Assembly (NCBI GenBank): GCA_965204345.1
Contig: OZ241981.1
Span: 480,001-544,000, forward strand
From: Nitrosopumilus sp.
GTDB taxonomy: Archaea > Thermoproteota > Nitrososphaeria > Nitrososphaerales > Nitrosopumilaceae
Length of the DNA stretch: 64,000 nt
Direction: 5' to 3'
Numbering within the stretch: the first letter of the stretch is position 1; every line of letters starts with the position of its first letter. The translations under genes and the position numbers were made by a program. This document shows, in pieces, positions 4,671-21,028 of this stretch. A model generated the notes under the pieces. The model worked only from the letters and a program-made list of their open reading frames with translations. It was not told the origin of the DNA and made no database searches.

Positions 4671-5318
4671 CTACCATACAACATGCACAAGATCTTTGAG
4701 ATTTCTTCGGGGTTTAGGGAATTTGGTCTGTTTGGGATACCCTATACAAAGTACAGATGAGGGAACAAGGTCAGTTTCAATTGCATCCATGACTTTTTGC
4801 TCATCAAACATTCCAATCCAAATCGAACTTAACCCCAAGGCCTGAGCTGCAAGTTGAGAGTATCCGGCAGCAAGGGTGGCATCCTGAATAGCAAATTTTT
4901 TTAAAACATACTCAGGAAAATCAAATTTTACCCTGGAGGGATTTTTACAAAATACCAATACGACTGGGGCATCAACGTACGGCTGATTATTGCATGCCTG
5001 AACAAGGAGCTTCTTTTTTTGGGGACTCTTAATGTAGAAAATTTCAAACCCCTGGTAATTTCCGGCAGTCGGGGCAGTGTCAGCTGCTGCAATAATCTTA
5101 TCAATCTTTATGGTTTCAACTGGCTTATCCAAAAATTTCCGAGTTGAGCGTCTCTTTGCCATAACAGCAAACAAATCAGTATCGACAACCTCAGTGGGCC
5201 CGGACTTTAGAATGAAATCAAGCAGGCTGTTTCTCACATCATTATCAGCAACGTTTGGAGCTTCTTGTGGCTCATATCCCAAGGGATAGATTTTCTCACC
5301 ATCCTTTTGAGAATCCAT
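4671..5318 (-). CDS. Nitroreductase family protein
   Basis: RRSTRKF, APTAGNYQ, LGLSSIWIG and CIGYP motifs. Confidence 0.9.
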   Translation of the reverse strand: MDSQKDGEKIYPLGYEPQEAPNVADNDVRNSLLDFILKSGPTEVVDTDLFAVMAKRRSTRKFLDKPVETIKIDKIIAAADTAPTAGNYQGFEIFYIKSPQKKKLLVQACNNQPYVDAPVVLVFCKNPSRVKFDFPEYVLKKFAIQDATLAAGYSQLAAQALGLSSIWIGMFDEQKVMDAIETDLVPSSVLCIGYPKQTKFPKPRRNLKDLVHVVW

Positions 5319-5386
5319 AAAAACATTAGAAAAAATACACTATTAAAGAATTAGAAAATTCCCAGTGATGACAACAGCAGCAACAG

Positions 5387-5572
5387 TCACTCTGCCTCAA
5401 ACATATCGCAGCCAAAAGTGCACGGCTTATTCATCACTCCCTCACATGCACCCAAGTCATCATGCATGATTCTATGGTGACCACAGGTCTTACATTTTTC
5501 CCGAAAATGGGAAATCAGCTCAGCAGTAGAGATGCCAGATTCCCGGATTTTCAATAGAGTTTCTTCGGCCAT
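5387..5572 (-). CDS. Small Cys/His-rich hypothetical protein
   Basis: CKTCGHH...H...C...C...CD pattern. Confidence 0.6.
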   Translation of the reverse strand: MAEETLLKIRESGISTAELISHFREKCKTCGHHRIMHDDLGACEGVMNKPCTFGCDMFEAE

Positions 5573-5674
5573 AATGGGATTGGATAATCAAGTTAGTTTA
5601 AACATTTTGAACAAATATCTAATAGGAGACAAAAGGAAGAAAGACTCGTGAGCATCATAAAATATATCAACAAA

Positions 5675-5788
5675 ATGAGTCATCGCAAATTCTACTTGAT
5701 ATTTGGAACATCCAGCATAGTTGCGTTTTATTTGCTTTTTACAAACTGTTATCAATTGTACGGGGAGCACTGTTTTTACGTTCCATAA
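5675..5788 (+). CDS. Putative 37-aa membrane peptide
   Basis: Read by eye: MSHRKFYLIFGTSSIVAFYLLFTNCYQLYGEHCFYVP*, one hydrophobic helix. Confidence 0.4.
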   Translation: MSHRKFYLIFGTSSIVAFYLLFTNCYQLYGEHCFYVP

Positions 5789-5796
5789 AATGCAAA

Positions 5797-5903
5797 GCAA
5801 CAAATGCCAACTTGCTAGAAAAATTATCAAACTCAGATTGCCTTGAGCGTTTACACCAGTTGCCTTTGCACCAAATGCTAATTTACTAGAAAAATTATCA
5901 GAC
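5797..5903. repeat. Degenerate 36-bp direct repeat pair around a 35-bp insert (period 71)
   Basis: gcaacaaatgccaacttgctagaaaaattatcaaac (5797-5832) vs gcaccaaatgctaatttactagaaaaattatcagac (5868-5903), 5 mismatches. Confidence 0.8.
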
Positions 5904-5904
5904 A

Positions 5905-6096
5905 GTGTTGATTAAGCCAGATAAAGAATCAGACAGATATCAAACAGTAATAGTTGAGTCAAAAGTCAGGGAGGGGATATTTCACAAAGTCATCAAGGAC
6001 TTGGAAAGTGGAAAGGCCGTCTCATGTTCTTGCAAGTGCTGGAGTAAGGGAAACAAGCCCTGTGTGGCCATGAGAACTATTGGTTATAAAGAGTGA
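5905..6096 (+). CDS. Small SWIM-like zinc-finger protein
   Basis: SCSCKCWSKGNKPC motif after a beta-strand-like N-terminus. Confidence 0.5.
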   Translation: MLIKPDKESDRYQTVIVESKVREGIFHKVIKDLESGKAVSCSCKCWSKGNKPCVAMRTIGYKE

Positions 6097-6116
6097 GAAA
6101 TGTCAGGTTGTGTGCC

Positions 6117-6272
6117 ATGAAAGGAGATTCACATGCTCAATGTCAGGACTGTGGGGGGCAATGCACATATTCAAAACATCGCATGCAAACTCATGCAGAA
6201 TATCTGAAAAGACACAGGTGTCCAAAGTGCGGGAATTTTGCGCTGAAAACTAGGAGTTTGGGGACGGCTTGA
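6117..6272 (+). CDS. 51-aa zinc-ribbon protein
   Basis: Read by eye: MKGDSHAQCQDCGGQCTYSKHRMQTHAEYLKRHRCPKCGNFALKTRSLGTA*, two CxxC pairs. Confidence 0.6.
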   Translation: MKGDSHAQCQDCGGQCTYSKHRMQTHAEYLKRHRCPKCGNFALKTRSLGTA

Positions 6273-6373
6273 TTGCAAGTGAAACTGTTATCTGATTTTG
6301 AGTTGAGGACCAGCCATATTTTGAGGCACTAGTCAGAGCTTGATTGCAAGTGAAACTGTCATCTGATTTTGAG
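6267..6373. repeat. 36-bp direct repeat pair around a 35-bp insert (period 71)
   Basis: gcttgattgcaagtgaaactgt(t/c)atctgattttgag at 6267-6302 and 6338-6373, 1 mismatch. Confidence 0.95.
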
Positions 6374-6376
6374 GGC

Positions 6377-6486
6377 TCTTGTGTCAATAAAGGCGCCGAG
6401 AGAGGGATTCGAACTATTGTTTCTAATCTGAACTTTAGGTTATTATGATCTTGTGTCAATAAAGGCGCCGAGAGAGGGATTCGAAC
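6377..6486. repeat. 38-bp perfect direct repeat (tRNA-Ser 3' end plus trailer) around a 34-bp insert (period 72)
   Basis: tcttgtgtcaataaaggcgccgagagagggattcgaac at 6377-6414 and 6449-6486. Confidence 0.95.
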
Positions 6487-6547
6487 CCCCGCACGCTTGC
6501 GCGTAGCCGTTTTCGAGACGGCCGCCGTACTACTTGGCTATCTCGGC
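6466..6547 (-). tRNA. tRNA-Ser(CGA)
   Basis: Reverse complement has acceptor stem GCCGAGA/TCTCGGC, discriminator G, anticodon arm GCCGT-CTCGAAA-ACGGC, a long variable arm and a GTTCGAATC T-loop. Confidence 0.95.
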
Positions 6548-6596
6548 ACCTATTATGGGATTGTCTCCATAATAAAACGAATAGATGAGTTTAGGC

Positions 6597-6902
6597 CTAA
6601 TCAATGTCAAATAATTCGTCTCTGAATTTCTTTTTGATTTGATCCCGTGTTCTAACCCACTCTTCGTCAGTTACAGTGTCTGTAAAAATGGAATGAAACC
6701 CGTCAAATTTCGGATTATTCAGTATTGCAATGATTTCCCGTCTTTCAAATTGTGTAAAAGGAAAATAAGAGACAATGGCTGAAACAGAATCATCGGATTG
6801 ACGGATTTCAAATATTTTATCTTGTAAATTGGGCGGAAATCTTTGTTGGGACACTTGATTTTGAATTTGCTTGCATAGTAAATATGATTTTAAAGACAGC
6901 AA
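6597..6902 (-). CDS. Hypothetical protein
   Basis: 101-aa ORF with normal composition between the tRNA and fen1. Confidence 0.6.
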   Translation of the reverse strand: MLSLKSYLLCKQIQNQVSQQRFPPNLQDKIFEIRQSDDSVSAIVSYFPFTQFERREIIAILNNPKFDGFHSIFTDTVTDEEWVRTRDQIKKKFRDELFDID

Positions 6903-6942
6903 ATAAGATACCGATCAGTTCCAAAGGATAAACACAAAATAG

Positions 6943-7983
6943 ATGAAAAATCCATGGGATCTCATGGGATTAAATCTCAAAGACCTAGTCACAAGAGAAA
7001 AGACAACGCTGGATGCATTTTCAAACAAAATCATAGCCATAGATGCATACAATGCAATTTACCAGTTTTTAGCAAGCATCAGAGGTCCGGATGGCCTGCA
7101 GCTTACAGATGCAGAGGGAAGAATAACCAGCCACCTCAGCGGATTGTTTTATAGAAATGTGAACTTTCTCTCGCTGGGAATCAAGCCGGTTTATGTTTTT
7201 GACGGCAAGCCGCCATCACTTAAAACGGCAGAAATTGAACGAAGAAAACAGATCAAAAGAGATGCCACTGTAAAATATGAAAAGGCAGTTGCAGAAGGCA
7301 ACATGGAGGATGCAAGAAAATATGCACAGCAGACAACCAGCATGAGGGACGGGATGGTAAAAGAGTCAAAGCAGTTTCTCACGTATTTTGGAATTCCATA
7401 TATTGATGCGCCCTCAGAAGGAGAGGCAACTGCAGCACACCTAACAAATACGGGACAGGCATATGCATCTGCAAGCCAGGACTATGACTCTATTTTATGC
7501 GGAACCAAAAGGCTGGTCAGGAATTTTACAAGCAGCGGAAGAAGAAAAATTCCAAACAGAAATACATACATCGACGTGGTGCCAGAAATCATCAAAACTC
7601 AGAAAACTTTGGATGCAATTGAAATGACAAGGGAAGAATTAATTGACGTGGGAATTTTAATTGGAACAGACTTTAATCCAAATGGTTTTGAGAGAATTGG
7701 GCCAAAGACTGCAATAAAACTAATCAGGCAGCATTCAAGACTGGAGGATATTCCACAAATTCAAGAACAGCTAGAAGAAATAGACTTTGAGCAAATAAGA
7801 AAAATATTCCTAGACCCGGATGTGGCAGACGTGGATGAAATCGTGTTTGGAGAAGCAGACGACATAGGAATTACAAAATATCTAAAGGAAAGAAGTTTTT
7901 CAGAAGAGAGAATTCAGTCTACACTAAACAGATTGAAAAAGGCACTGGAAAAAAAGAGTCAGAATCTAGACCAGTGGTTTTAG
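6943..7983 (+). CDS. fen: Flap endonuclease 1 (likely start at 6964)
   Basis: [33 protein letters not shown] and GTDFNP motifs; C-terminal PIP box QNLDQWF. Confidence 0.97.
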
Positions 7984-8433
7984 ATTACAAATTCATCCCA
8001 TCATACTTTAAAAAAAACAAAAGAGGTCATAGAGCTATCCATTGCACGATATGCATCAAAAAAATCCTTCAGAATTTGTGCCCAAATTATGTTTGATAAT
8101 CTTACAGCAGCTATTGTAATAGCACTTGCAGCAATGCATGTTGAATTTTTTGTACTAATAATAAAACTCGGGGATTATCAAAATAAAGTCATGGGGCATA
8201 AGTCCCTGTTTTGAGAATTGCCAATCTGATTTTCTTGTTCCAATCAAGAATCTGATTGGAATAGTCATCAATATCATCATTCTGTATTGTTTGTTTAGAC
8301 CTCATCCTCATCTCAAAGAATACTTTGGCAAAGATTACACATGACATGATTAAAAATATCTTAAAAAACCAACTAGTTTCATCTGGTTTCAAGCGTATAA
8401 GCATTTTTATATTTAAAATTTGGAAATTAAATA

Positions 8434-9105
8434 ATGGAATATGAGATTGTGAAAAATCCCATGGGACTAATTGAATTTACACTAAACAGGGATGAAAAAA
8501 TTACAGCAGAGGCCGCTGCCATGGTTTTCATTAAGGGTAACATTAGAACTGAAACTAGAATGAGAAAGGGCGGATTTTTAAAATCACTCAAGGCCGCGGC
8601 GTTTGGGGGGGAATCATTTTTTGTAAACGAGTTCACAGCAGATGAGAATGATTGTAAGCTCGGACTGACAGGAAATATGCTAGGAGATATTGAGGTACTA
8701 GATGTTAATGAGGAGTTTATAGTTCAATCAGGTGCATTTGTAGGCTCTACTACAGATTTAACACTAGATACCAAATGGCAGGGATTCACCAAAGGGATCT
8801 TCGGCAGCAACCTATTCATGCTAAAAACAGTCGGAACCGGAAAAATGTTTGTTAATGCATGGGGAGGAATTGTTAAGAAAAAGCTAGAATCAGGAGAAAG
8901 GATGATTCTTGACAACTATCAACTAGTTGCACTAAGTTCCACGGCAGATTACAGAGTAACAAAGCATGGCAGCCTTAAAACAACACTGTTTGGGGGAGAA
9001 GCCCTAGTCATAGAGATAATTGGCCCGGGAACAGTATACATACAGACAAAGAACATTATGGAATTTGCCAGGGCACTAATTCCATTTCTCCCAAGACGGA
9101 ATTAA
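8434..9105 (+). CDS. AIM24/TIGR00266 family protein
   Basis: GGESFFVNEF, GGEALV and GPGTVYIQT motifs. Confidence 0.85.
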   Translation: MEYEIVKNPMGLIEFTLNRDEKITAEAAAMVFIKGNIRTETRMRKGGFLKSLKAAAFGGESFFVNEFTADENDCKLGLTGNMLGDIEVLDVNEEFIVQSGAFVGSTTDLTLDTKWQGFTKGIFGSNLFMLKTVGTGKMFVNAWGGIVKKKLESGERMILDNYQLVALSSTADYRVTKHGSLKTTLFGGEALVIEIIGPGTVYIQTKNIMEFARALIPFLPRRN

Positions 9106-9421
9106 TAAAATCAAAAATAAGGAAATTGTTAAAGCATCAGCAATGCCATCCTAGAAAAATATTTGTCATGAGAGCATGTTTTCATAGGAAATTACATCTT
9201 GAGATTGAATTTAAAAAAAAATATACATAATGCAATTTGTTAAATACGGGAAACCCTCGTAAAAAAACAAAAGGAATAAAGATGAACAAAGATGATTACT
9301 TAAATCCAGCAGGCCAGAATTGTAACAGACACTTTTTAAAAACAAGAAATGAGAGAGGGGACATTCCTTTACAACCCTAAAGGTAATCTATATTGCATTA
9401 AGAATTTTTCCAATACTTTTT

Positions 9422-10921
9422 GTGCTAAAAAAACACAGAAAAATCTGGATTCACAAGCAAGATGAAAGCGTGGATCTAGAAAAATTTACAAAAAATGGCA
9501 GAAAGTTGCTAAACACGTTTCTGTCACTGGGACCAGTATACATAAAATTGGGACAGTGGCTTTCCTCCAGAGCAGACATACTTCCACAGCCATACATGAA
9601 AGAGCTGGAAAAATTACAGGACAACATTCCTGCTGCGCCATTTGAAAAAGTCAAACCCATCTTAGAAAGGGATTTGGGATCAGTTGAGGGGAAATTTGAT
9701 TTCTTTGATCATGATGCGCTGGCTGGCGCGTCACTGGGACAGGTGTATCGCGCCAAGATAAACAACAAGGAAGTGGTTGTTAAGGTAAAGCGTCCTGGAA
9801 TAGAAGAAAAAATAAAAGAAGACATAAAGGTTTTAGAGAAATTTTTGCCAATAGGCCTGAGATTTATTGATCCAAACCTGGGTTTTTCTGCAAAGTCAGT
9901 CATAGCACAGTTCATTGAATCAATTCATGAGGAGATAGACTATACTTTGGAGCTAGCTAACTTGAAAAAAATCAAGTGGAATTTAAGGGATAACGACAGG
10001 GTGATAATTCCCTCAGTTTATGAGGAATATTCTTCAAAAAACGTCATCACAATGGAGTATCTTCCGGGAATAAAAATCACGGACATTAAAGCCCTAGATG
10101 AGAAAAAATTTGACCGAAAAAAGCTGGTGCTAGAAATTTTTAATATCTTTTTTACAATGCTGCTTCGGGATCCCATATTTCATGCAGATCCCCATCCAGG
10201 CAATATTTCAGTGAGCAGGGAGGGCAAAATAATCCTATACGATTATGGAATGATTGGAAGATTGGACAAGGAGACTAGAATGCGTCTAATTAGGGTATAT
10301 CTAGGATTGATAGAAAAGGATCCGTCAAGGACAGTCAACGGCATGGAAGAACTCGGAATGTTAAAGCCCGGATTCAACAGGATTTTGATTGAAAAGGCCA
10401 TATCAATGTCAATACGAAGCATACATGGACAAAAGCCAGACGAGGTGGAAGTAAAATCATTTATGGAATTGGCAAACAAGACCATGGGGAGATTTCCATT
10501 TTTGCTGCCAAAGGAGCTGGCATCCTACCTAAGAATGGCCTCAATACTAGAAGGAATTTATGAAACACACAATATTGAGTTCAGGTTTGCCAAAGTCCTA
10601 AGAGCAATTTTAGAAAAAGAGAATCTGGTATTCAGGGCATATGTGCAAGAATTAAAACATTCATTTAACAGGATAACAGAGTCAGTTGATACTGCAATAT
10701 CGCTTGCACCGGAGCTAAAGAGGTTTTTGGATGACAGGCATTCCCTTGAGGAAACAACAAAAAAACGAAACCAGAATCTCCTGCTTTCAGGAAGCATTTT
10801 GTCCTCTGCTGTCTTTGTTGGCTCTGCAGTTTTGTTTTCTGCAAATGAGCTTGCAGGCACAATAGGGATGATAAGCTCAGGTGTAATAATGGGCATTTTT
10901 ATAAAGTTTACAAGAAATTAA
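9422..10921 (+). CDS. AarF/ABC1/UbiB family atypical kinase
   Basis: LGPVYIKLGQWLSSR, GASLGQVY, VVVKVKRP, FHADPHPGN and DYGM motifs. Confidence 0.93.
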   Translation: MLKKHRKIWIHKQDESVDLEKFTKNGRKLLNTFLSLGPVYIKLGQWLSSRADILPQPYMKELEKLQDNIPAAPFEKVKPILERDLGSVEGKFDFFDHDALAGASLGQVYRAKINNKEVVVKVKRPGIEEKIKEDIKVLEKFLPIGLRFIDPNLGFSAKSVIAQFIESIHEEIDYTLELANLKKIKWNLRDNDRVIIPSVYEEYSSKNVITMEYLPGIKITDIKALDEKKFDRKKLVLEIFNIFFTMLLRDPIFHADPHPGNISVSREGKIILYDYGMIGRLDKETRMRLIRVYLGLIEKDPSRTVNGMEELGMLKPGFNRILIEKAISMSIRSIHGQKPDEVEVKSFMELANKTMGRFPFLLPKELASYLRMASILEGIYETHNIEFRFAKVLRAILEKENLVFRAYVQELKHSFNRITESVDTAISLAPELKRFLDDRHSLEETTKKRNQNLLLSGSILSSAVFVGSAVLFSANELAGTIGMISSGVIMGIFIKFTRN

Positions 10922-11310
10922 TTGAGCAGGTTTTCAAATACGTGCAGCAGCAAAGTTGATTTTTTTTAGTCATGTTTACTGGCAAAACATTGCCCCAAGT
11001 ACGCCTCTAGTTTTTCTGGCCTTGATATTTTCAGCATCAAAACCGGCCAGACCGGATTTGACTTTGGGATTATCACCTGCCAATAAGCATCAAAGGCACA
11101 GGGATTCATTTGGTGACGTGTGCGACTTGTCATGCCTCTGAGGACATATCCCTTGCAAATTGCTCCAGGACTTTTATTTAACATGCAATGACAATACAGA
11201 CGGCATCTTCTTAAAGATGCTTTACTCTAATTTAAGATCAAAAGATGTGAAATGTCAAAACAGCCAGAGGCTTTAAAATACTTTAAGTATAATTAAAAAG
11301 AATCCCGTTT

Positions 11311-11607
11311 ATGGTTCATTTTTTAGCATGGTTTCTGGCAGGACTTGCAGCCCCTAAAGTGTATGAAAGACTAGCGCCGGAGGTAAAGGCTCAATGGAAG
11401 AAAAAGTATCCAATACATCACGGCGAGGCGGGAATTCTGATGGTGTTGGGGGGATCTGTTACAAAAAATCTGGGATTGGCAGCTTTTGGAGCAGGCCTGA
11501 TCATAGAAGATTGGAAGGATAGAAACGAATGGTTCAAAAAAACAGATTCAGAACAAGGCATTGAGGAATCTGCTTTTGATGATGATGATGATGATGATGA
11601 CAGTTAA
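11311..11607 (+). CDS. Small membrane protein with poly-Asp tail
   Basis: Hydrophobic segments, HHGE motif, (gat)n run at 11578-11600. Confidence 0.65.
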   Translation: MVHFLAWFLAGLAAPKVYERLAPEVKAQWKKKYPIHHGEAGILMVLGGSVTKNLGLAAFGAGLIIEDWKDRNEWFKKTDSEQGIEESAFDDDDDDDDS

Positions 11608-12150
11608 CTGCACAGCAAACCAAAAAGATCTCAAGAGAATTTAAAATGAAGAGAAGAAAAACAAATGTACAGCATGGCATTTTTTGACGAGTCCTGTACC
11701 GACTAATTGCGTATTTTGCAGGTATGTCTTTTAGCGTATGCATTATGGGACCCACATTACCAATAAAAGAAACGGTTAGACCAGATTGGTTTATTGCAGT
11801 TCCAACCATGACTGTAACATGGTTTTAGGAACAGGTCTTGTGATAAAATGAGATGCTCGTAGTTAAAGGGATAAAGACCAGACATTAGGATTTGCCAAAA
11901 GGAGTATTACATTACAGGTAAAGGCACCTGCTGATTTGTGTTTGGTACGTCTCTCAGAAAAAGGACTGACAGCAACAGTCTGGTATCAGGCTTGGCAGTC
12001 ACCATGTAGGCGTATCTGGGATATTTTTGGGATGAAAAAACAAAGAGAAATCAAAGTCAGAAGAAAAACCAGGCGGCCAGGTAATTTTTGAGACAGCCTA
12101 GTTATTTTAAAAGGATTATAACTTAATAACCAGACACCATATTCTAAAAA

Positions 12151-12681
12151 ATGCATCAGACAGAAGCAAGAAAGATACTCAAGGATGCCCCAATCATGTG
12201 GAGAAGAATCAACTCAATAGGCATGATTTTAGACTGTAATTCAACATACGCTGCAAAGCTAGGGTACATCAAGTCAGAGATACTTGGAAGGCCAATCTTT
12301 GAGCACGTACCAAAGGAGGCATGGAAGGACATGAATAACTCTCTAAAAAGATGGTTTGAGACAGGCAAGGTAACAGATAGAAAAATTACGTTCAAAAAGC
12401 AGACAGGTGAGACATTTCTAGGGCTTTTGCAGGCAACTAGCCTGTACGATGAGAACAGAAATCTGCTTGGAAGCAACACGGTAATTTTTGACTTGGAGCA
12501 GATGACAGGTGAAAAGATTAAGGAATGCCAGGAATTTTTTAAAAAATCAAACGAAAGATTGGATGAGATTAAAGAAAAAGACTATGATCAGCTAGATGCA
12601 AATTCAAAGCTAGAATATGATGGACTAGAAGAGATGTTTGAAATGCTATCTGCCATCAACCTGGAGCAATTAAAAAAATAA
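12151..12681 (+). CDS. Stand-alone PAS-domain protein
   Basis: ILDCN...LGY..SEILGR and KKQTGETF PAS/PAC pattern. Confidence 0.85.
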   Translation: MHQTEARKILKDAPIMWRRINSIGMILDCNSTYAAKLGYIKSEILGRPIFEHVPKEAWKDMNNSLKRWFETGKVTDRKITFKKQTGETFLGLLQATSLYDENRNLLGSNTVIFDLEQMTGEKIKECQEFFKKSNERLDEIKEKDYDQLDANSKLEYDGLEEMFEMLSAINLEQLKK

Positions 12682-14604
12682 TTATTCTGGATTTTCCTTG
12701 ATTGATTTTTGAAGTTCATCAAAGACTTGTTTGACCTCAGTTACAGCAGAACCGTCTTCTAGCGTACTGACATCACCGATTTGCTCACCATTGCCAATTG
12801 CTTTGAGCAGCCTGCGCATGATCTTGCCACTGCGGGTTTTGGGTAACTTGGAAACAAAACAGATTTGCTTGGGAGCTGCAATTGCACCTATGTCGATTCT
12901 GATTTTTTCAACAAGTTGTTTTTCTAAAATCACAGAATCAGCTGCAACTCCTTGTTTTAAGACCACAAATGCAATTATTGCCTCGCCCTTTACATCATCG
13001 GGGACCCCACATGCGGCAGATTCTGCAACATCAGGATGGGATACAATGCAACTTTCAAGTTCGGCAGTCCCAATTCTGTGACCGGCAACCTTTAGAACGT
13101 CATCTGCACGGCCTAGCATCCACAGATAGCCATCATCATCCTTTAAGGCATAGTCGCCCGGATAGTAGCAGTTTTGATATTTTGACCAGTAAACAGTCCT
13201 GTATTTTTGATCATCACCCCACAGTGTCAAAAGCATTCCGGGCCAGGGATTTCTGATTACCAGGTATCCCTTAGTGTTGGCACCGGCCTCATTTCCATTC
13301 TCATCGACAACGTCAATTTTTACACCTGGAATGGGGCGTGTCCCAGAACCGGGCTTTAGAGGAATTGTCTCAATGCCAGGCAGGGACGAAACTAAAATCC
13401 CGCCAGTTTCAGTCTGCCACCAGGTATCAATAACGGGACACTTTTCCTTTCCTATGGTTTTGAAATACCATTTCCATACTTTGGGATTTATCGGTTCCCC
13501 GACTGTCCCAAGCAGTCGTAGGGATGAAAGATCAAAGGAGTTTGGAGCATCATCGCCAAACTTCATAAACATTCTCAGTGCGGTAGGCGTGGTGTAAAAA
13601 ATTGTAACTTTGTATTTTTGTAAAATGTCCCACATCCGTGACGCATCAGGAAAGTCAGGGGCTCCCTCATACATCACTTGGGTTGCACCATGAAGTAACG
13701 GGGCATAAACGACATAGCTGTGGCCTGTAACCCAGCCAATATCAGCAGTGCAAAAAAAGATGTCAGTATCTCTAATATCAAATGCCCACCTGAATGTAGA
13801 ATGCAGATGTGTAAGGTATCCTCCGGTGCCATGCAAGACACCCTTTGGTTTTCCGGTGGTGCCCGAAGTATACAAAATGTAAAGGGGATGATCACTGGGC
13901 AGTTTTTCAGCAGCACACGAATCAAAAGCTTTCTCCATTAGTTTGCTCCAAAGTTTGTCTTTAGGGGAGGTGGAGAATTTTTGCTTTGTTCTCTCCAAGA
14001 CAACCACATGTTCTACAAAATCAAGGTCTGCAATTGCAGTATCCACAACATCCTTGAGCGGAATAATTTTCCCCCTCCTGTATCCGCCATCGGCAGTTAC
14101 AATTACTTTGGATTTTGAGTCCGATACCCTGTCTTTGATTGATGAGGCGCTAAATCCGGAGAAGATTACAGTGTGTATTGCGCCAATTCTGGCACATGCA
14201 AGCATTGCAATGGGCAGTTCGGGAACCATTGGGAGATAGATTGTAACCCTGTCTCCCTTTTGGACACCAAGTGATTTGAGGACATTGGAGAACTTTTGGA
14301 CCTCAGTGAACATCTGGCCATATGACACATTGCGGCATTCGCCGTTTTCTCCCTCCCACAGTATTGCAGGCCTGGAGGATTTTGATTGCTGATGAATGTC
14401 CAGTGCATTATGCGAGGCATTAATTGTGCCTCCAACAAACCATCTGGCAAAGGGGGGATTCCAATCAAGGGTCTTCTCCCAGGGGGAAAACCAGGACAGA
14501 TTCTTTGCCTGCCCATCCCAAAAGGATACAAAATCAGAATCGGCCTTTCTTCTTATGCTCTCATCGTGATTTCCAAGGCCGATTTTGTAGATTTCAGACA
14601 TCAA
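12682..14604 (-). CDS. acs: Acetyl-CoA synthetase (AMP-forming)
   Basis: YTSGTTGKPKG, DTWWQTETGG, GRADD and PKTRSGKIMRR motifs. Confidence 0.96.
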   Translation of the reverse strand: MMSEIYKIGLGNHDESIRRKADSDFVSFWDGQAKNLSWFSPWEKTLDWNPPFARWFVGGTINASHNALDIHQQSKSSRPAILWEGENGECRNVSYGQMFTEVQKFSNVLKSLGVQKGDRVTIYLPMVPELPIAMLACARIGAIHTVIFSGFSASSIKDRVSDSKSKVIVTADGGYRRGKIIPLKDVVDTAIADLDFVEHVVVLERTKQKFSTSPKDKLWSKLMEKAFDSCAAEKLPSDHPLYILYTSGTTGKPKGVLHGTGGYLTHLHSTFRWAFDIRDTDIFFCTADIGWVTGHSYVVYAPLLHGATQVMYEGAPDFPDASRMWDILQKYKVTIFYTTPTALRMFMKFGDDAPNSFDLSSLRLLGTVGEPINPKVWKWYFKTIGKEKCPVIDTWWQTETGGILVSSLPGIETIPLKPGSGTRPIPGVKIDVVDENGNEAGANTKGYLVIRNPWPGMLLTLWGDDQKYRTVYWSKYQNCYYPGDYALKDDDGYLWMLGRADDVLKVAGHRIGTAELESCIVSHPDVAESAACGVPDDVKGEAIIAFVVLKQGVAADSVILEKQLVEKIRIDIGAIAAPKQICFVSKLPKTRSGKIMRRLLKAIGNGEQIGDVSTLEDGSAVTEVKQVFDELQKSIKENPE

Positions 14605-14659
14605 AAAAGTTTATGAGGATAGATCCTTCTAAGTGTTTAAAAAAAATAATTTAAAAAAA

Positions 14660-15538
14660 TTATTGTGCTTCCATTCTAGCAAGCCAGTCATTATCATTAT
14701 CATCTTTTGAGGTCTCTGCTGTCACCTGTTGGGGTGGTTCTGGAAATGCAAATGTTACCTCAGATTCAGTTGGAGGCTCTGGTATTGGGGTACTTGGCGC
14801 CTCTATTGGCCCTGAAGGTATTGCTGCTGATTGGACTGGAACTTCTGGAAGTATTGTCTGAACTGCCTGTTGCGGTTCAGAAGTCTCCAGGTATGTAACG
14901 GCTGATTCTTGGATGTCCGGTGTTGGGGGGGCTGTTATCTCTTGCACTTCTAGTTCAAGATCTGCAATTCTGGTCTTTACATTTGCAATTTCTGCTGTTT
15001 CGTGAGTTATATGCTCAATTACCTCAGTTGTGCATGACTTTACAGTCTCAAATGTTGGATCAGAGATTTCGTTGCTTTTGAACTGTACTTTTGCATCAAA
15101 CGATAGCATCTTTGCAGACTTCATCTGATCATCTAACTCAGCCAGTCTTGCCTCAAGCACAGCCTTGATTTGGCTTTCTGTCTCATCTAATAATACAAGC
15201 TTTGACTTGTATTTTTCATGAATGATTTGTGCATCTGCCTTCATGTCATCATTTTCTGAAACAATATCAATCAGTGCCTTTAGACGGCGTAGAGTTAGCT
15301 GTTTTTCACGAATGAGCCTTTGGGAGTCGAGTCTCCATTTTGGAATGAATATAACAACTTCGCCTTGAACCACCAGTTGCTCATATTGGATTTGCTGTAA
15401 TCCCTGAGAACCGCAGTCAATGCCGACAGACTGTATGCTGCCATCGATGTCAGTCATTGTTCCTACAACCTTACCCATGAATGTTCCGTACATGTCCTTG
15501 ACGTTTTTACCGATTATTTCGATATCGTCTTGGGTCAT
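14660..15538 (-). CDS. cdvA: Cell division protein CdvA
   Basis: IGKNVKDMYG PRC-barrel N-terminus, coiled coil, Pro/Glu-rich tail. Confidence 0.88.
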   Translation of the reverse strand: MTQDDIEIIGKNVKDMYGTFMGKVVGTMTDIDGSIQSVGIDCGSQGLQQIQYEQLVVQGEVVIFIPKWRLDSQRLIREKQLTLRRLKALIDIVSENDDMKADAQIIHEKYKSKLVLLDETESQIKAVLEARLAELDDQMKSAKMLSFDAKVQFKSNEISDPTFETVKSCTTEVIEHITHETAEIANVKTRIADLELEVQEITAPPTPDIQESAVTYLETSEPQQAVQTILPEVPVQSAAIPSGPIEAPSTPIPEPPTESEVTFAFPEPPQQVTAETSKDDNDNDWLARMEAQ

Positions 15539-15671
15539 GTGAGTTAGTTTAGAGATTTGTATAACCAACAAAGTGTAAGAAATGTTTTTAGTTTTAGTAA
15601 GATAAAATTCACAAACTCAAGACAGGTCAATTTTCAGTAATTTTAAAATCTAGAGACAAAATAACAGGCTC

Positions 15672-15965
15672 ATGATTCAAAAAGAGGAACTAGAGCAAAT
15701 TTTGAATTTTGTCGCAAGCAGGTGGACCGGAGCCACAAAGGATCCAAACAACAGGGCAATGGATACTCTGCCAAATGACTTTTGGATGAACTCAATTGGA
15801 GGAAAGACTGCCAAAAAGGGATTCTGGGTTACAACCCTAATGTATACAGAAAATGAAGAGGATGCCGAATCCTTCAAGCAGGTACTGCTAAGATGGCAGG
15901 CAAAAGGCCAAGACAAAGACAGAGACAAAGGTCCCGATCTAATTCAAATTGGAAAAAAGAAATAG
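15672..15965 (+). CDS. Hypothetical protein
   Basis: 97-aa ORF co-oriented with thyX. Confidence 0.65.
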   Translation: MIQKEELEQILNFVASRWTGATKDPNNRAMDTLPNDFWMNSIGGKTAKKGFWVTTLMYTENEEDAESFKQVLLRWQAKGQDKDRDKGPDLIQIGKKK

Positions 15966-15997
15966 AGTATTAATAATTGTGAGCTGACATAACGGTA

Positions 15998-17617
15998 TTG
16001 TCAGAATTCTCAATTAATGAAAAAAAAATTCTATCCAAACATTTTTCAAATACGGAAGGGAATGTCTTTGCAATAACTACTCCGCGACAAGTTGATCGCG
16101 GTGCGTTAATGTCAAGATACAGCAGAACAGATAAGAGCATGAGAAGAGTCTTCCTAGATGAATTCTTAAAAAACAGAAACAGGGGGGAGGAATTTTACAA
16201 CAGGGTGCTTTTAGAATACGGGGATGATTCTGTTGCAGAGTTGGGTGAAGCCCAGATTGCAATAGAGGGACTCTCAAACATTGCAGTCAAAAAAATTGAA
16301 GACAGGCGAATTGGCCTGTCATACTTGGAAAAATCATCAAGGTATGTAGTATGGAACAAGAAGGAAAAAGGGAAATACAGGTTTTACAGGGAACCCAAAA
16401 TTATGGAATCGCGGTTTGCAGACATTTATGAGGAGAGCTGTAACTTTTCATTTGATGTTTATTCAGAAAACATAGAGCCGATGATAAGATATGTTAGGGA
16501 AAAATATCCAATAGAAAAATATAGTTTTAAGAATTCCAGGGACGGAGAGGAAAAATTATTCTCTAAGCTAAGAGACGAGTCAGACATAAAGTCAGCAGAG
16601 ATGATTTACAAGGGCTCAACAAAGGCAAAGGCACTTGACATACTGAGGGGATTATTACCTGCATCAACTTTAACAAATGTTGGCATTACAGGAAACGGAC
16701 GCGCATTTGAATATCTTTTAACAGTTTTAGGCTCGTCTGAGCTAAAAGAAGAGCAGGATTTAGCCTCAAAAATCAAAAAAGAGCTTGACACGACGATCAA
16801 GTCATTTGTCAGAAGGGCAGATGACAGGTATGGCAAAGCATTTCAAAAATATCTCAAAGACATCAGAAATAAATCCAAGGCAATTGCTGCAAAAGAAATA
16901 AGACCGGACCCAAGAGAGGGGACGATTACAAAACTTGTAAGGTACGAATCAGAAAGAGATGCAATAGATACGATCATCACAGGTATAATGTATGAGCAGT
17001 CACCGGGTACGTCATATCAGAATATTTTCAGGCAGGTAAAAGGATTGCCTAGGGAGAGAAAGACTAAGATCATAGATGAATTTGCAAGGATTCGCACAAA
17101 CAGGCGCCACAGGCCGCCAAGGGCATTTGAAAACGTGTATTACACCTTTGACTTGTCCAATAATTTTGGAATGTTCAGGGACTTTCACAGGCACAGGGCA
17201 CTGACACTAGAAAGACAGATGCTTACAACGGATCACGGGTATGGCATGCCAGATGAAATAAAGATTTTGGGCATTCAGAGGGATTTCAAGGATTGCATGA
17301 ACAAAACAAAAGAGGCGTTTGAAAAAATTAGAACCAGATTTCCAGAGCAGGGGCAGTACGTAGTAAACTTTGGATACAACTATCCGTACTTTATGAAGTT
17401 TAATCTAAGGGAGGCCTGCCATCTAATTGAGCTGAGAACGGTTCCGCAGGGACATGCAGATTACAGAAGGGTTGCACAGCAAATGTTCAGACAAATTAAC
17501 AGGGTTCATCCAAATCTTAGTAAAATTATAAAGTATGCAGATATGAAGGAATATGATTTGGAAAGATTTGAATCAGAGAAAAGAACAGAAGAAAAGAGAA
17601 AAGATTTGAAAAAATAA
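15998..17617 (+). CDS. thyX: FAD-dependent thymidylate synthase (two-domain ThyX)
   Basis: [21 protein letters not shown] and HLIELR motifs. Confidence 0.92.
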
Positions 17618-17620
17618 AGA

Positions 17621-18040
17621 GTGAATCAAATGAAAGAAAGAATAGAAAAGACACAGGAGGAATGGAAGGAGCAGTTAACCCCGGATCAGTATGAAATATG
17701 TATCAATCACGGAACAGAGCCGCCATTTTCAGGCAAATACAACAGCACAAAATTGGAGGGAGCATTCAGATGCACGTGCTGCGGTGAGAAGCTCTTCTCA
17801 TCAGATGCAAAGTTTGATTCAGGCTCAGGCTGGCCAAGCTTTTGGGAGCCAATCTCTGAGGAAAAAATAGAGTATGTCTCAGACACAACACATGGAATGG
17901 TTCGCACAGAGGTAAACTGCAACAGATGCGGGGCGCATTTGGGACATGTATTTGATGACGGCCCAAAGCCGACAAATCAGAGGTACTGCATCAATTCTGT
18001 CTCACTGCAGCATGAGAAGGATGACAAAAGACAAGAATAA
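17621..18040 (+). CDS. msrB: Peptide methionine sulfoxide reductase B
   Basis: GTEPPF, SGSGWPSF, HLGHVF and RYCINS motifs. Confidence 0.97.
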   Translation: MNQMKERIEKTQEEWKEQLTPDQYEICINHGTEPPFSGKYNSTKLEGAFRCTCCGEKLFSSDAKFDSGSGWPSFWEPISEEKIEYVSDTTHGMVRTEVNCNRCGAHLGHVFDDGPKPTNQRYCINSVSLQHEKDDKRQE

Positions 18041-18057
18041 ACTCAGAAAAGGCTCTC

Positions 18058-18345
18058 TTAACTTGCCGGGTGTTTGATTCCGGATCTTCCTGATGTTAGA
18101 TGGCCTGAATTTAGATTGTTTGAGGCATTGCCAGCCTTGATATACATGCCTTTGGATATGTGTATTATTTTTCCTGTTTTTGTCATCTTGTGGATGATGC
18201 CCCTTATCGAGTGTTTTGTAATGTCTCCTTTATCTTCAAATCCGCACTCAACTACGTATTTGTAAATTTCTTTCAGACTCTTTTTTTCATTTGATTCAAA
18301 AATATCATCTATTGCACGCCCCATCGTATTTTGTTTTTTCTTCAT
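18058..18345 (-). CDS. Small winged-HTH-like protein at the end of the RM operon
   Basis: SLKEIY...HSIRG.I......GMY pattern; its ATG overlaps the restored REase stop (ATGA). Confidence 0.55.
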   Translation of the reverse strand: MKKKQNTMGRAIDDIFESNEKKSLKEIYKYVVECGFEDKGDITKHSIRGIIHKMTKTGKIIHISKGMYIKAGNASNNLNSGHLTSGRSGIKHPAS

Positions 18346-19071
18346 AGCAGCAGAACCTCCTTAGGCGAAAACTTGAACTGTAGCATCTGTGCTGTCTGGC
18401 CACACCCCATTGCCTCCCTTTCTCTGAACCGTTATTTTGCCCAGTTTTAGATTGCCTCTTTTTGTAATTTTTGTCAATCCCCCATAATGATTGATTACAT
18501 TTTCTATCTTGGTTATTGCCAAATGTTTTATCCCATTGTCGTTCTTCTTGACCACAGGCATATAATCTGCTTTTGGCTCTGTATTTCCTCTTAATACATC
18601 ATGAATGATTCTAGACTTGTTTTTGCCAAAGAAATTCAGGATTTTCTTCTGTTCATCAAGTGTCAATTCCGTAAGAAAATAGCGTCTCTGATCTTTTACT
18701 TGTGGGATTGGATTCTCATCACTTGGCCTGTATCCCTCTTGTCCACAGTATTTTTTTAAAATGACAGCCACATCTTTTGGAATACTCTACATTTTTTGAT
18801 ATGTGTCTGCCTTTCGCTTGTCTATCTGGCTAAAACGGATGGTGAGCTTTTTTATGGATATCCCTATCTGATTGCCTCCATTGACTATTAGAAGAGCATC
18901 TGCCTTTCCATTCATGCCCAGTGAACGTGTAGTGCTTGCCTTGAGAGTCCTTATTTTGGAGTATCCCATTACAGAAAGCCATTTCTTTGCAGTTATACTG
19001 TTACTCCAATTCTGAAACTCATCTACAACTTGATCTTCGGTTGCAAAACCACTTTTGGCAGTTTCAGACAT
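18342..19071 (-). pseudogene. Type II restriction endonuclease, HinP1I-like, inactivated
   Basis: TAKSGF..E, KAD, QIDKR and QRKGG motifs. In-frame TAG at 18787-18789 (YQKM*SIPKD). A frameshift in a G run near 18405 hides the C-terminus GQTAQMLQFKFSP. Confidence 0.8.
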
Positions 19072-20002
19072 GATTCATCAGATGGGTTTGTGGTACATTA
19101 TAGTTTATGGCAATTATTTCCCTGCTTTTATCTTTCTGTGTAAAATACTGTAATGACCTGTTTAATGTGATTTTAAATACCCTATACATTGAAGACAGTC
19201 TCAGATAATCTGGCTGGTTTTGCTCTGAAATCATCACCTTGTTTGACTTTTGGATGTTTTTTACAAATTTCATAAAATCATCTAGTTCTACTACTGCATT
19301 ATAGTGGCCGTTGGCGTTGTTCATGTATGGCGGGTCAAGATACACAAAGCCGTTGCAGACATCCGCATAACTTGTAAAATCCTTGTTTGTTATTTTGAGA
19401 TGTTTTATTGTATTGCTTAGAAATCGTATTGTCTCCCTCTTTATTTGAGGACAGTTTGCGTTTTTTCTCATTGGACAGTTAAACTTGTTTTTTGAATTGA
19501 ATCTAATCTTTCCAGAAAAGGCATTTTTAGCAAGATAGAAAAACCTGCCAGCTCCCAGTGAACCGTCCTCCAGATCCAAATTCCTTACATGCAGATAATA
19601 ATCAGGGCTTGATTTTTTGTAATGTCGTTGGTACTGGTCAAAAAGATCATCGGGGTTTTTTCTTAGGGATTTTACAAAGTTTGTAATTACTGGATTATGA
19701 TCATTATACACGATATTTTTTGAACCAAACCTGTTGCAGGCATAAAATGTAAATCCACATCCGCCCCCAAAAACATCATAAATTTTTTCGCCATAATTAT
19801 CAGGAATCAACGAATCAAAGATATGTGCAAATCCTGATTTGCATCCCACATACGGAATTATCTTTAGGGGTGCTTTGTGCTGTCTTCCAACATCAAAACG
19901 TTGTGGCATCCACATGCTTTTTTCAGGCCTCTTATCAGTTTGAACGCAGTGTATTCCAACATCAAAACGTTGTGGCATCCACATACCTCCCCAATTTTGC
20001 AT
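19064..20002 (-). CDS. DNA adenine methyltransferase, D12/Dam class
   Basis: PYVGCKS, DVFGGG, ND.N and YLDPPY motifs. Confidence 0.9.
   Translation of the reverse strand: MQNWGGMWMPQRFDVGIHCVQTDKRPEKSMWMPQRFDVGRQHKAPLKIIPYVGCKSGFAHIFDSLIPDNYGEKIYDVFGGGCGFTFYACNRFGSKNIVYNDHNPVITNFVKSLRKNPDDLFDQYQRHYKKSSPDYYLHVRNLDLEDGSLGAGRFFYLAKNAFSGKIRFNSKNKFNCPMRKNANCPQIKRETIRFLSNTIKHLKITNKDFTSYADVCNGFVYLDPPYMNNANGHYNAVVELDDFMKFVKNIQKSNKVMISEQNQPDYLRLSSMYRVFKITLNRSLQYFTQKDKSREIIAINYNVPQTHLMNHV
19881..19986. repeat. 31-bp perfect (37 bp with 2 mismatches) direct repeat pair, period 69, in the MTase 5' end
   Basis: ttccaacatcaaaacgttgtggcatccacat at 19885-19915 and 19954-19984; gives a duplicated MWMPQRFDVG. 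Confidence 0.95.
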
Positions 20003-20030
20003 CTTTTACGTCTTTAATCAAAAGATCGAA

Positions 20031-20225
20031 TCACTCTCTTACTAGTTCCAAGACAATCTGCTCTGTCTTGACATCCAGTGTCCATTTTATCCTGTGATCA
20101 GTAGTAATTTCTAACATCTCTGCAATGTCCCTGGGAATTGTACAGTGTACCGTCTGATTCTTGTTTGCAATTACAACGTTTGAGTATTTTATCAGATTTT
20201 TTACACTGTTCAAAACTCCGAACAT
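20031..20225 (-). CDS. AbrB/SpoVT-like transcription regulator
   Basis: TIPRDIAEMLEI...D.I.W motif, directly upstream of the MTase. Confidence 0.7.
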   Translation of the reverse strand: MFGVLNSVKNLIKYSNVVIANKNQTVHCTIPRDIAEMLEITTDHRIKWTLDVKTEQIVLELVRE

Positions 20226-20264
20226 TTGCCTCTAGTATCCAATTCGGGACATGGAATCAACATT

Positions 20265-20525
20265 CTAATCCAAAAGATGGCCTTGGGGATATTCCTTAAT
20301 CAAGTCTTGCATGACCCATACTGCCTCATTTCTGATGGACTCGTCTGGATGCACGATAAATTTTTTGCAAAATTCCAGCCTGTCCTCGCCTGAGAGTGTC
20401 TGTGCATATCTCTGATCTATTTTGGAATGTGATATGGAATCAAATTTGGATGAGGTATCTTTTATGACAGTTATCTTGTTTTGGTCAACAACCATACATC
20501 TGCCCGGTGCAAACTTTTCAGCCAT
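20265..20525 (-). CDS. Hypothetical protein
   Basis: 86-aa ORF with a HEAT-like tail (HPDESIRNEAVW). Confidence 0.5.
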   Translation of the reverse strand: MAEKFAPGRCMVVDQNKITVIKDTSSKFDSISHSKIDQRYAQTLSGEDRLEFCKKFIVHPDESIRNEAVWVMQDLIKEYPQGHLLD

Positions 20526-20557
20526 GTAAAATAAACTGCCACAAATACAATTTAATG

Positions 20558-20612
20558 GATTTGGTATATTTGGTTATCTGATAACTGGAATTTGACAATT
20601 TATTGCCAGGGT
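20558..20612. mobile_element. Degenerate partial MITE-like copy
   Basis: gatttggtatatttggttatctgataactggaatttgacaatttattgccag aligns with the reverse complement of 22160-22214. Confidence 0.6.
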
Positions 20613-20648
20613 GCTGCACTATTGGCAGTTTTTAGGATGAGTTGTCAG

Positions 20649-20897
20649 TCATTTCATGTTTGCTATGTAGGCTTGTATGTCATCCCAACCACTTGAGCAT
20701 ACCTCAGTAGGATTTCTTTTCTGCACACATATTGCTTGCTCCAGAGTGTAAATTAGATCCAGACCCGAATCTTCTCCGCACAACAGTGTACCCGGATCAT
20801 AATGAGTATAACATGTAGGTATCAAAAGTATGCCAACTATTGTAAAGATTATGACTGTAATGCCAAATAAAAGAAGATGAGATGGGATCTTGATCAT
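20649..20897 (-). CDS. Small membrane-anchored Cys-containing protein
   Basis: N-terminal TM helix and four Cys. Confidence 0.55.
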   Translation of the reverse strand: MIKIPSHLLLFGITVIIFTIVGILLIPTCYTHYDPGTLLCGEDSGLDLIYTLEQAICVQKRNPTEVCSSGWDDIQAYIANMK

Positions 20898-20921
20898 CGG
20901 AGACTCAGAAGACTTGGGGCA

Positions 20922-21028
20922 TGATAAAGTTTGATGAATTGATCACCGGAGTTTAACAAAGAGAAGGCATCGGTCTTATTTCAGACAACGGTGATAAAGT
21001 TTGATGAATTGATCACCGGAGTTTAACA
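20922..21028. repeat. 37-bp perfect direct repeat around a 33-bp insert (period 70); duplicates a MITE end
   Basis: tgataaagtttgatgaattgatcaccggagtttaaca at 20922-20958 and 20992-21028. Confidence 0.95.

Follow-up and report, generated by a model that had tools for sequence, protein, structure and literature searches.

Spacer acquisition away from the regular insertion point of CRISPR arrays (clusters of regularly interspaced short palindromic repeats) has been described in three settings close to the one treated here. In Escherichia coli with artificially up-regulated machinery, Cas1-Cas2 integrates off target and creates neo-CRISPR arrays (Nivala et al. 2018, via bioRxiv 10.1101/148544), and the available part of that preprint calls the evidence for natural off-target integration, in two species, circumstantial. 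According to the excerpts of PMC6698737, the Cas1-Cas2 of Pyrococcus furiosus integrates in vitro at non-CRISPR sites of plasmids through paired attacks one repeat length apart, and the preferred sites resemble the repeat at their borders (G1, T2, A6 and others). Within the CRISPR arrays of Streptococcus thermophilus, spacers can also be acquired ectopically, as the excerpts of PMC7999890 state. Here, we describe five repeat-insert-repeat units (A to E) in a 64,000-nucleotide stretch of a Nitrosopumilus genome (the window, C1:480001-544000), in each of which a piece of local chromosomal sequence is directly duplicated around an insert. The source genome, G000, comprises 2.12 Mb in 9 contigs and is 99.7% complete, C1 being its 2.04-Mb contig. 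We consider it highly probable that these five units, together with about 25 others elsewhere in the genome, are fixed full-site integrations by the genome's own type I-B-like Cas1-Cas2, possibly with Cas4.

Results

Five units in the window

A direct-repeat search recovered the five scars reported in a preliminary description of this DNA, with duplications of 35-38 bp, inserts of 33-35 bp and periods of 69-72 bp (start-to-start spacings of 71, 71, 72, 69 and 70 for units A, B, C, D and E). The inserts are mutually unrelated, each being unique, and the duplicated targets include, as that description had it, a tRNA end, a methyltransferase start and the end of a multi-copy element.

Unit A (window positions 5797..5903) has 36-nt copies at 5797-5832 and 5868-5903 around a 35-nt insert (5833-5867). 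With 5 mismatches between its copies (86% identical) it is the oldest of the five, and its repeat-like orientation is on the minus strand, beginning GTTTGATAAT. Unit B (6267..6373) also has 36-nt copies, at 6267-6302 and 6338-6373 (1 mismatch, 97% identical), and a 35-nt insert (6303-6337); it is repeat-like on the plus strand, where it ends in TTTTGAG. Only 3 bp separate it from unit C, the leader-like ends of the two units facing one another. Unit C (6377..6486) consists of 38-nt copies at 6377-6414 and 6449-6486, 100% identical, and a 34-nt insert (6415-6448). Its target is made up of the final 23 nt of tRNA-Ser(CGA) plus 15 nt downstream, and on the minus strand it begins GTTCGAATC, 7 of the 9 positions agreeing with the repeat start GTTTCAATC. 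The tRNA-Ser gene itself (anticodon CGA; 6464..6547, minus strand), whose 3' end served in the target, is intact.

Unit D (19881..19984; 35-nt copies at 19881-19915 and 19950-19984, 1 mismatch, 97% identical; 34-nt insert at 19916-19949) lies within a minus-strand open reading frame (ORF) of 312 residues at 19064..20002 that encodes a D12-class N6-adenine DNA methyltransferase, the Pfam domain of which starts at residue 51. The N-terminal codons of this gene were the target; given a period of 69, the unit added 23 codons in frame close to the N-terminus, and the frame is still open. Finally, unit E (20922..21028) has perfect 37-nt copies at 20922-20958 and 20992-21028 (100% identical) around a 33-nt insert (20959-20991), and its target is the end of the multi-copy element.

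Genome-wide set of units

To place the window in its genome, contig C1 was searched for direct repeats present as isolated pairs. Under a stricter score with periods of 30-200, 40 of 75 clean pairs fell at periods 69-77, while most of the remaining 3-nt period bins held 0-2 pairs, the exception near 150 being made up of longer repeats. A looser criterion (at least 26/34 matches, periods 40-130) placed 54 of 92 pairs in the twelve periods 67-78. Under either score, a period near 70 bp is enriched across the genome, as the idea of off-target spacer acquisition had led one to expect.

The curated set comprises 29 independent units on C1, copies within larger duplications being counted once. Left out are coding repeats and about 15 short or decayed hits at periods 64-80; such weaker hits, with a duplication below 33 nt or more than 5 mismatches (for instance those at C1:71316, 110352, 284497, 301804, 1761137, 1797392 and 1974844), may include older events. 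The 29 units have a median duplication of 37 bp (33-42, mode 36-38), a median insert of 35 bp (30-38) and a median period of 72 bp. Their two copies differ at no position in 19 units, at 1 in 3, at 2 in 4, at 3 in 1 and at 5 in 2, a range from 0 to at least 5 mismatches that bears out repeated events over time. The units are also clustered along the contig: 13 of 28 neighbour gaps are shorter than 20 kb, against 6.9 expected (P = 0.002), and the five units of the window, within 15 kb, form one cluster.

Some units have been carried along in later duplications. A 3.6-kb segment stands three times in tandem (C1:1406775, 1410373 and 1413971), and each copy holds the same ectopic unit, which must therefore be older than the triplication. 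Inverted duplicate pairs at C1:1419699/1424895, 1765720/1848731 and 1400070/2017386 share units as well.

A rather different origin of the set would be replication slippage or tandem duplication with a diverged middle, coding repeats of 23-25 residues, or an assembly artefact; we regard this group of explanations as extremely unlikely. It is true that the genus has coding repeats of 72-75 nt (25-residue repeats in the relatives G072 and G026; in the window, a collagen-like ORF). The inserts of our units, on the other hand, have no similarity to the flanking copies, and the 19 perfect duplications enclose inserts that are unique. Moreover, the 552 raw hits of the real contig compare with 0, 0 and 1 in three block-shuffled copies, which speaks against slippage and against chance alike.

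Coding repeats were removed by eye, their periods being 63-75 nt overall. In this way we excluded the collagen-like repetitive ORF of the window (about 38900-39600, periods 63 and 72) and repeats of 24-25 residues in G072 and G026. In the latter two genomes, tandem coding repeats of about 25 residues (G072 C1:1864-1868 kb, G026 C1:276-278 kb) give a strong 75-nt periodicity, and repeats of this kind can mimic repeat-spacer-repeat units in automated scans.

The CRISPR adaptation module

The preliminary description had stressed that there was no array. This holds locally, but not for the genome as a whole, where a small array accompanies cas1, cas2 and cas4 outside the window; its geometry matches that of the units. 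The locus (C1:1886281-1888701) lies about 1.4 Mb from the window and has the gene order cas1-cas2-cas4-leader-array, with a leader-like gap of 80 bp. Its cas1 (C1:1887727-1888668), beside cas2 and cas4, encodes the only Cas1 homologue of the genome. The array consists of six repeats with a conserved part of 34 nt and periods of 68-72, the repeat reading GTTTCAATCTTTATAATTTTAGAATTCTATTCAG on the plus strand. No member of the DevR/Cas7, Cas5, Cas6 or RAMP families is detectable anywhere in this 99.7%-complete genome.

Of 101 sampled genomes of the genus, 43 have Cas1. In G000, the two halves of the protein share 63% and 61% identity with residues 1-158 and 176-322, respectively, of the Cas1 of the relative G078, whose locus contains a 553-residue ORF with no family hit, cas7 (Csh2, I-B), cas5b, cas3, cas6, cas1, cas2 and cas4; a leader and a 67-unit array with a period mode of 71 come next. 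The closest Cas1 class is one that sits in type I-B-like loci. Arrays beside the same Cas1 class in five relatives have repeats of 36-37 nt, 67-127 units and periods of 70-74, and in two of the five the repeats begin GTTTCAATCTTTG, as does the G000 repeat. Taken together, array periods of 68-74 with repeats of 34-37 nt imply spacers of about 32-38 nt. Because the repeats of the relatives measure 36-37 nt and their periods 70-74, the geometry of the ectopic units is that of the CRISPR units of the lineage.

Two observations concern the surroundings of this module. An ORF of 563 residues for a tyrosine recombinase (C1:1882556-1884247; L002 10556-12247, minus strand) lies 2 kb from the CRISPR array, and the cas1-cas2-cas4 remnant may belong to, or adjoin, an integrated element. 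Several further Cas1 homologues, in open frames of 410-420 or 557-578 residues, occur in many genomes of the genus, G000 not among them; they are possibly casposases and fused forms.

Links between the units and the CRISPR machinery

The ends of the targets resemble those of the repeat. For each target, the first and last 9 nt were compared with the repeat ends and the better orientation was kept, random sites being treated likewise. The mean score of the targets was 7.41 against 5.92 +/- 0.30 for random sites, and none of 2000 random sets reached it. The 8 nt outside the leader-side end likewise resemble the start of the leader (2.48 against 1.88 +/- 0.22; 17 of 2000 random sets reach this value). 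Positions enriched in the targets are G1, T2, A6 and A7. The loose likeness to archaeal repeat starts, pointed out earlier by eye for several targets, therefore holds statistically against the repeat of this very genome. Integration did not take place at the leader-repeat junction of the array, the targets being unrelated chromosomal sequences; we call the units ectopic because these targets are unrelated to the CRISPR array and their ends are only partly repeat-like or leader-like.

The module itself has been hit twice. In the array, the leader-proximal repeat holds an out-of-register unit, in which a 40-nt duplication (13 nt from the preceding spacer and 27 nt from the repeat) surrounds a 32-nt insert. 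In cas1, a 38 + 34 unit (72 bp) with identical copies lies between the segments aligned to Pfam positions 3-145 and 167-282, splits the gene and brings in two TAA stops; in silico deletion of the insert and one copy restores a frame of 337 residues. This insertion is among the youngest events, as its flanking copies are perfect.

One ectopic site has gone on to acquire a second insert. The locus at C1:250509-250697 now consists of two inserts and three repeat-like copies: to an older unit, with 5 mismatches, a second event added 35 nt of insert and a duplication of 44 nt that is offset by 8 nt. Its paralogue at 253451 still shows the earlier state with one insert. The locus is a two-spacer neo-array and the only one of this kind, the remaining units being single.

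As an alternative to Cas1-Cas2, the preliminary description had offered an unknown ruler-based integrase. Such a still-undescribed integrase or transposase, unrelated to Cas1-Cas2, would duplicate a target of about 36 bp and insert about 35 bp. It is not needed, and we hold it to be very unlikely. Some facts do lend it room: we infer the catalyst from sequence, the relative G026, which has no Cas1 hit, contains one unit that meets our criteria, and the 563-residue tyrosine recombinase is encoded 2 kb from the array. Nonetheless, it would leave to coincidence that the units have the geometry of the CRISPR arrays of the lineage, that the target ends resemble the CRISPR repeat and leader, and that the same product stands out of register within the array itself; nor do the inserts have common element ends. 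Tyrosine recombinases are not known to make such duplications around variable inserts.

Inserts and their sources

The 29 inserts have little in common, no 9-mer being shared by more than two of them. For five of the 29, the entire insert matches a place elsewhere in the chromosome, and the similarity stops where the insert does (34/36, 34/35, 30/32, 33/34 and 30/30); the 30/30 match extends 3 + 5 nt further, which makes the division between duplication and insert ambiguous in that case. The genes matched are NFACT, trpA, a member of the UPF0182 family and two small ORFs. One further insert matches only its own paralogous copies. Two of the self-like inserts belong to the window: that of unit B is identical to C1:262049-262083 at 34 of 35 positions, with sharp borders, and that of unit E to a conserved small gene at C1:964067-964098 at 30 of 32.

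For the trpA-derived insert, the resident gene is the closest sequence (33/34, against 25-29/34 in 11 relatives). For the unit E insert, the relatives score 30-31/33 and the resident copy 30/33, so that a donor in the chromosome itself and one in a close strain would fit equally well.

These inserts also bear on the possibility that the units are footprints of mobile elements, namely target-site duplications of miniature inverted-repeat transposable elements, insertion sequences (IS) or casposons, or else attL/attR remnants of tRNA-integrating elements after deletion of the cargo. One of the targets in the window is indeed the 3' end of a tRNA and another the end of a multi-copy element, and the relatives have many Cas1 homologues of 410-420 residues, possibly casposases. 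We nevertheless judge this origin improbable in the extreme. The inserts are mutually unrelated, only 30-38 bp long and devoid of conserved ends, and five of the 29 reproduce stretches of housekeeping or small genes of the chromosome. Targets in tRNA, genes and intergenic DNA all show the same period, and the single Cas1 homologue of the genome stands beside cas2 and cas4. Target duplications of casposons and IS are much shorter. As regards attL/attR remnants, only 34 nt lie between the tRNA-end copies at 6377-6486, with no integrase-bearing element.

Empty sites, reading frames and independent contigs

Single-copy empty sites, which integration into a pre-existing target would leave in paralogues and relatives, were found for three units. 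One member of a paralogous gene cluster of about 10 kb carries the unit at C1:162808, and all five other paralogous copies hold the 38-nt target once, with no insert. The same is true of the one paralogous copy of the unit at 167191. For the unit at 179899, the alignment with relatives extends in 11 of 11 orthologous loci as far as the first copy reaches, and these loci have the target once and no insert. The precision of these empty sites is a further argument against slippage.

The gene cluster that carries the first of these units (about 10 kb, C1:161700-172600) includes ORFs of 686 and 1891 residues and occurs in at least 6 copies of 71-92% identity, among them those at C1:1701-1711, 1728-1739, 1762-1774 and 1840-1852 kb and on contig C7. 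It was not found at the syntenic place in relatives.

Units within long ORFs have kept the frame. In 6 of 6 cases the period is divisible by 3 and the frame is open, compared with a period divisible by 3 in 15 of 29 units overall; this frame-preserving bias is what selection would leave.

Support for the junctions was sought in independent runs, through assembled Logan contigs (k = 31 graphs). Runs of six studies, mostly labelled as sponge metagenomes, contain window sequence. X1 and X6 contigs run through units A and B (5001-6406) and an X5 contig through unit A (5001-6288), the contigs that bridge one or both units coming from runs of two other studies. The expectation that independent data would span the units was accordingly borne out for A and B, but at units C, D and E the contigs end at the duplications, because k = 31 graphs break at exact duplications of at least 31 nt; stretches that no contig covers count neither for nor against a unit. 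Such breaks of short-read contigs at exact duplications are the feature that could make one think of an assembly artefact; the bridging of units A and B in independent runs argues against it. One X8 contig joins position 6266 to 6338 and omits exactly the 71 nt of unit B. We take it as a weak hint of an empty unit B allele, and as no more than a hint since its shorter side comprises 25 letters.

Units in relatives

A small sample of relatives was scanned in part. G078, with its intact type I-B-like locus and 67-unit array, has three clean units in 799,898 bp (36+35, 35+34 and 35+34), all of them perfect and one located 650 bp beyond its array. In G022, which has Cas1 and repeats of 37 nt, one clean unit (39+34) was found in the 20 kb beside the array. 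By comparison, the 2.04 Mb of G000 contain 26 units with no more than 2 mismatches, a density about three times that of G078. Ectopic units are hence not private to G000, within a sample that is small and mixed.

Surroundings of the units in the window

Several neighbouring features deserve mention. Next to the methyltransferase gene that holds unit D lies an ORF of 136 residues (window 18361-19071) whose match to the R.HinP1I restriction endonuclease family is confined to positions 87-190 of 208; it adjoins the D12 methyltransferase and an ORF of 94 residues with no family. The R.HinP1I-like ORF and the methyltransferase may be a decayed restriction-modification system. The multi-copy element whose end was the target of unit E (window about 20200-20960) has many paralogues across C1, C7 and C9, at 76-97% identity, and its depth in contigs is up to about 5x that of its surroundings. 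Between the two groups of units, the 4.1 kb from 7997 to 12114, including an ABC1 kinase-like ORF (9422-10921), look inserted here, because their flanks abut in relatives such as G012.

Discussion

Every check that was run, on the period, the cas genes, the self-matches, the empty sites and the independent contigs, supports the reading of the preliminary description that the units are fixed off-target spacer acquisitions. Full-site integration by Cas1-Cas2 would bring together the observed geometry, the enrichment of the period, the bias in target ends and the empty sites, as well as the self-derived inserts and the disruption of cas1.

Mechanistically, the events may have followed an order that we infer from these products. 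The integrase would strike at staggered positions, separated by roughly the length of a repeat (33-42 bp, median 37), in DNA with ends loosely similar to those of the canonical repeat; a prespacer of about 35 bp would be joined, and repair of the gaps would leave the target duplicated. Prespacers would derive partly from the cell's own chromosome or a nearly identical one. As the genome lacks effector genes and the 'repeats' so created differ from the canonical one, the self-derived inserts should carry no autoimmune cost, and only insertional damage would be costly. In line with such a cost, the survivors lie in intergenic DNA, at gene ends, in islands, or in frame within tolerant genes. One event split cas1, so that the module is now probably dead; in other words, the adaptation machinery would have been brought to an end by a product of the same kind as those described here.

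Several observations weigh against this picture. The duplications, with a mode of 36-38 bp, are 2-4 bp longer than the conserved 34 nt of the genome's own array, although they do match the 36-37-nt repeats of the relatives. Four of the five self-derived inserts differ by 1-2 nt from the resident copy, while their flanking duplications have 1 mismatch in total; the donor may therefore not be the resident chromosome, a conspecific strain being a possible source of the self-like inserts. For 23 of the 29 inserts no match, and hence no source, was found within the genome. Comparison of the two window stretches holding the five units with a phage collection gave chance-level matches (E >= 0.06) or none, and an exact-string search of IMG/VR with the 2 inserts tried gave 0 matches. 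The inserts, for which the preliminary description had proposed a search of viral, plasmid and self sequences and for a shared protospacer-adjacent motif (PAM), yielded the self sites but not the motif: the five protospacers, which are few and several of whose units are of uncertain orientation, have no common flank in either orientation. Among the relatives, G072 has Cas1 and an array of 127 units but 0 clean units in 398,100 bp. G010, with no Cas1 hit, has 0 clean units and 1 borderline one (31 nt, 1 mismatch, 39-nt insert) in 796,100 bp, while in the 398,100 bp scanned of G026, likewise without a Cas1 hit, 1 unit qualifies (34+38, 2 mismatches, in frame inside an ORF). The simple rule that the presence of Cas1 means the presence of units consequently had a mixed outcome across these partly scanned genomes, and does not lend strong support.

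A broader proposition concerns the whole lineage. Promiscuous integration could be a continuing property of this type I-B module in these ammonia-oxidising archaea (seen also in G078 and G022), frequent enough to act as a mutagen, a seeder of arrays and a killer of cas1; we would give this an even chance. If it is true, these genomes hold a natural record of the birth and death of CRISPR loci.

In any case, the genome offers about 30 fixed and datable events whose targets are known, as are the donors of some; paralogues provide precise empty sites, and cas1 is broken. These events make testable how Cas1-Cas2 recognises a site with no leader, how arrays originate, what adaptation costs the host, and whether self-insertion is a route to CRISPR loss. 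They are also a warning for annotation, as isolated repeat-spacer-repeat units can extend or disrupt genes; here a methyltransferase, the flank of a tRNA and cas1 are affected.

A literature search by title found no earlier report of such units in ammonia-oxidising archaea or at such a scale, though one may still exist in print. While the mechanism is known, its natural scale, about 30 units in a single genome, appears to be new.

Compared with the nearest complete locus, the type I-B locus of G078, the module of G000 has a Cas1 that is 61-63% identical, the same gene order, a related repeat and the same period; it differs in having no Cas7, Cas5, Cas6 or RAMP, only six repeats and a split cas1. 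With the E. coli neo-CRISPR arrays, as far as the available part of bioRxiv 10.1101/148544 describes them, the units share a spacer-length insert and a repeat-length duplication at a non-CRISPR site, and in both an ectopic site can go on to acquire another spacer, here the one at C1:250509-250697. Unlike those, the present events are natural and fixed, about 30 in one 2-Mb archaeal genome with more in relatives, and include one in cas1 and one out of register in the array. The preferred Pyrococcus sites in the excerpts of PMC6698737 share G1, T2 and A6 with the G000 targets, to which A7 is added here; that work was done in vitro, on plasmids and with a 30-bp repeat, whereas the G000 sites lie in a chromosome and are staggered by about 36-38 bp, the spread being 33-42 bp. 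Finally, integration away from the leader-repeat junction is a trait common to G000 and S. thermophilus, but the spacers described in the excerpts of PMC7999890 enter canonical repeats of the array, and those of G000 entered unrelated chromosomal targets.

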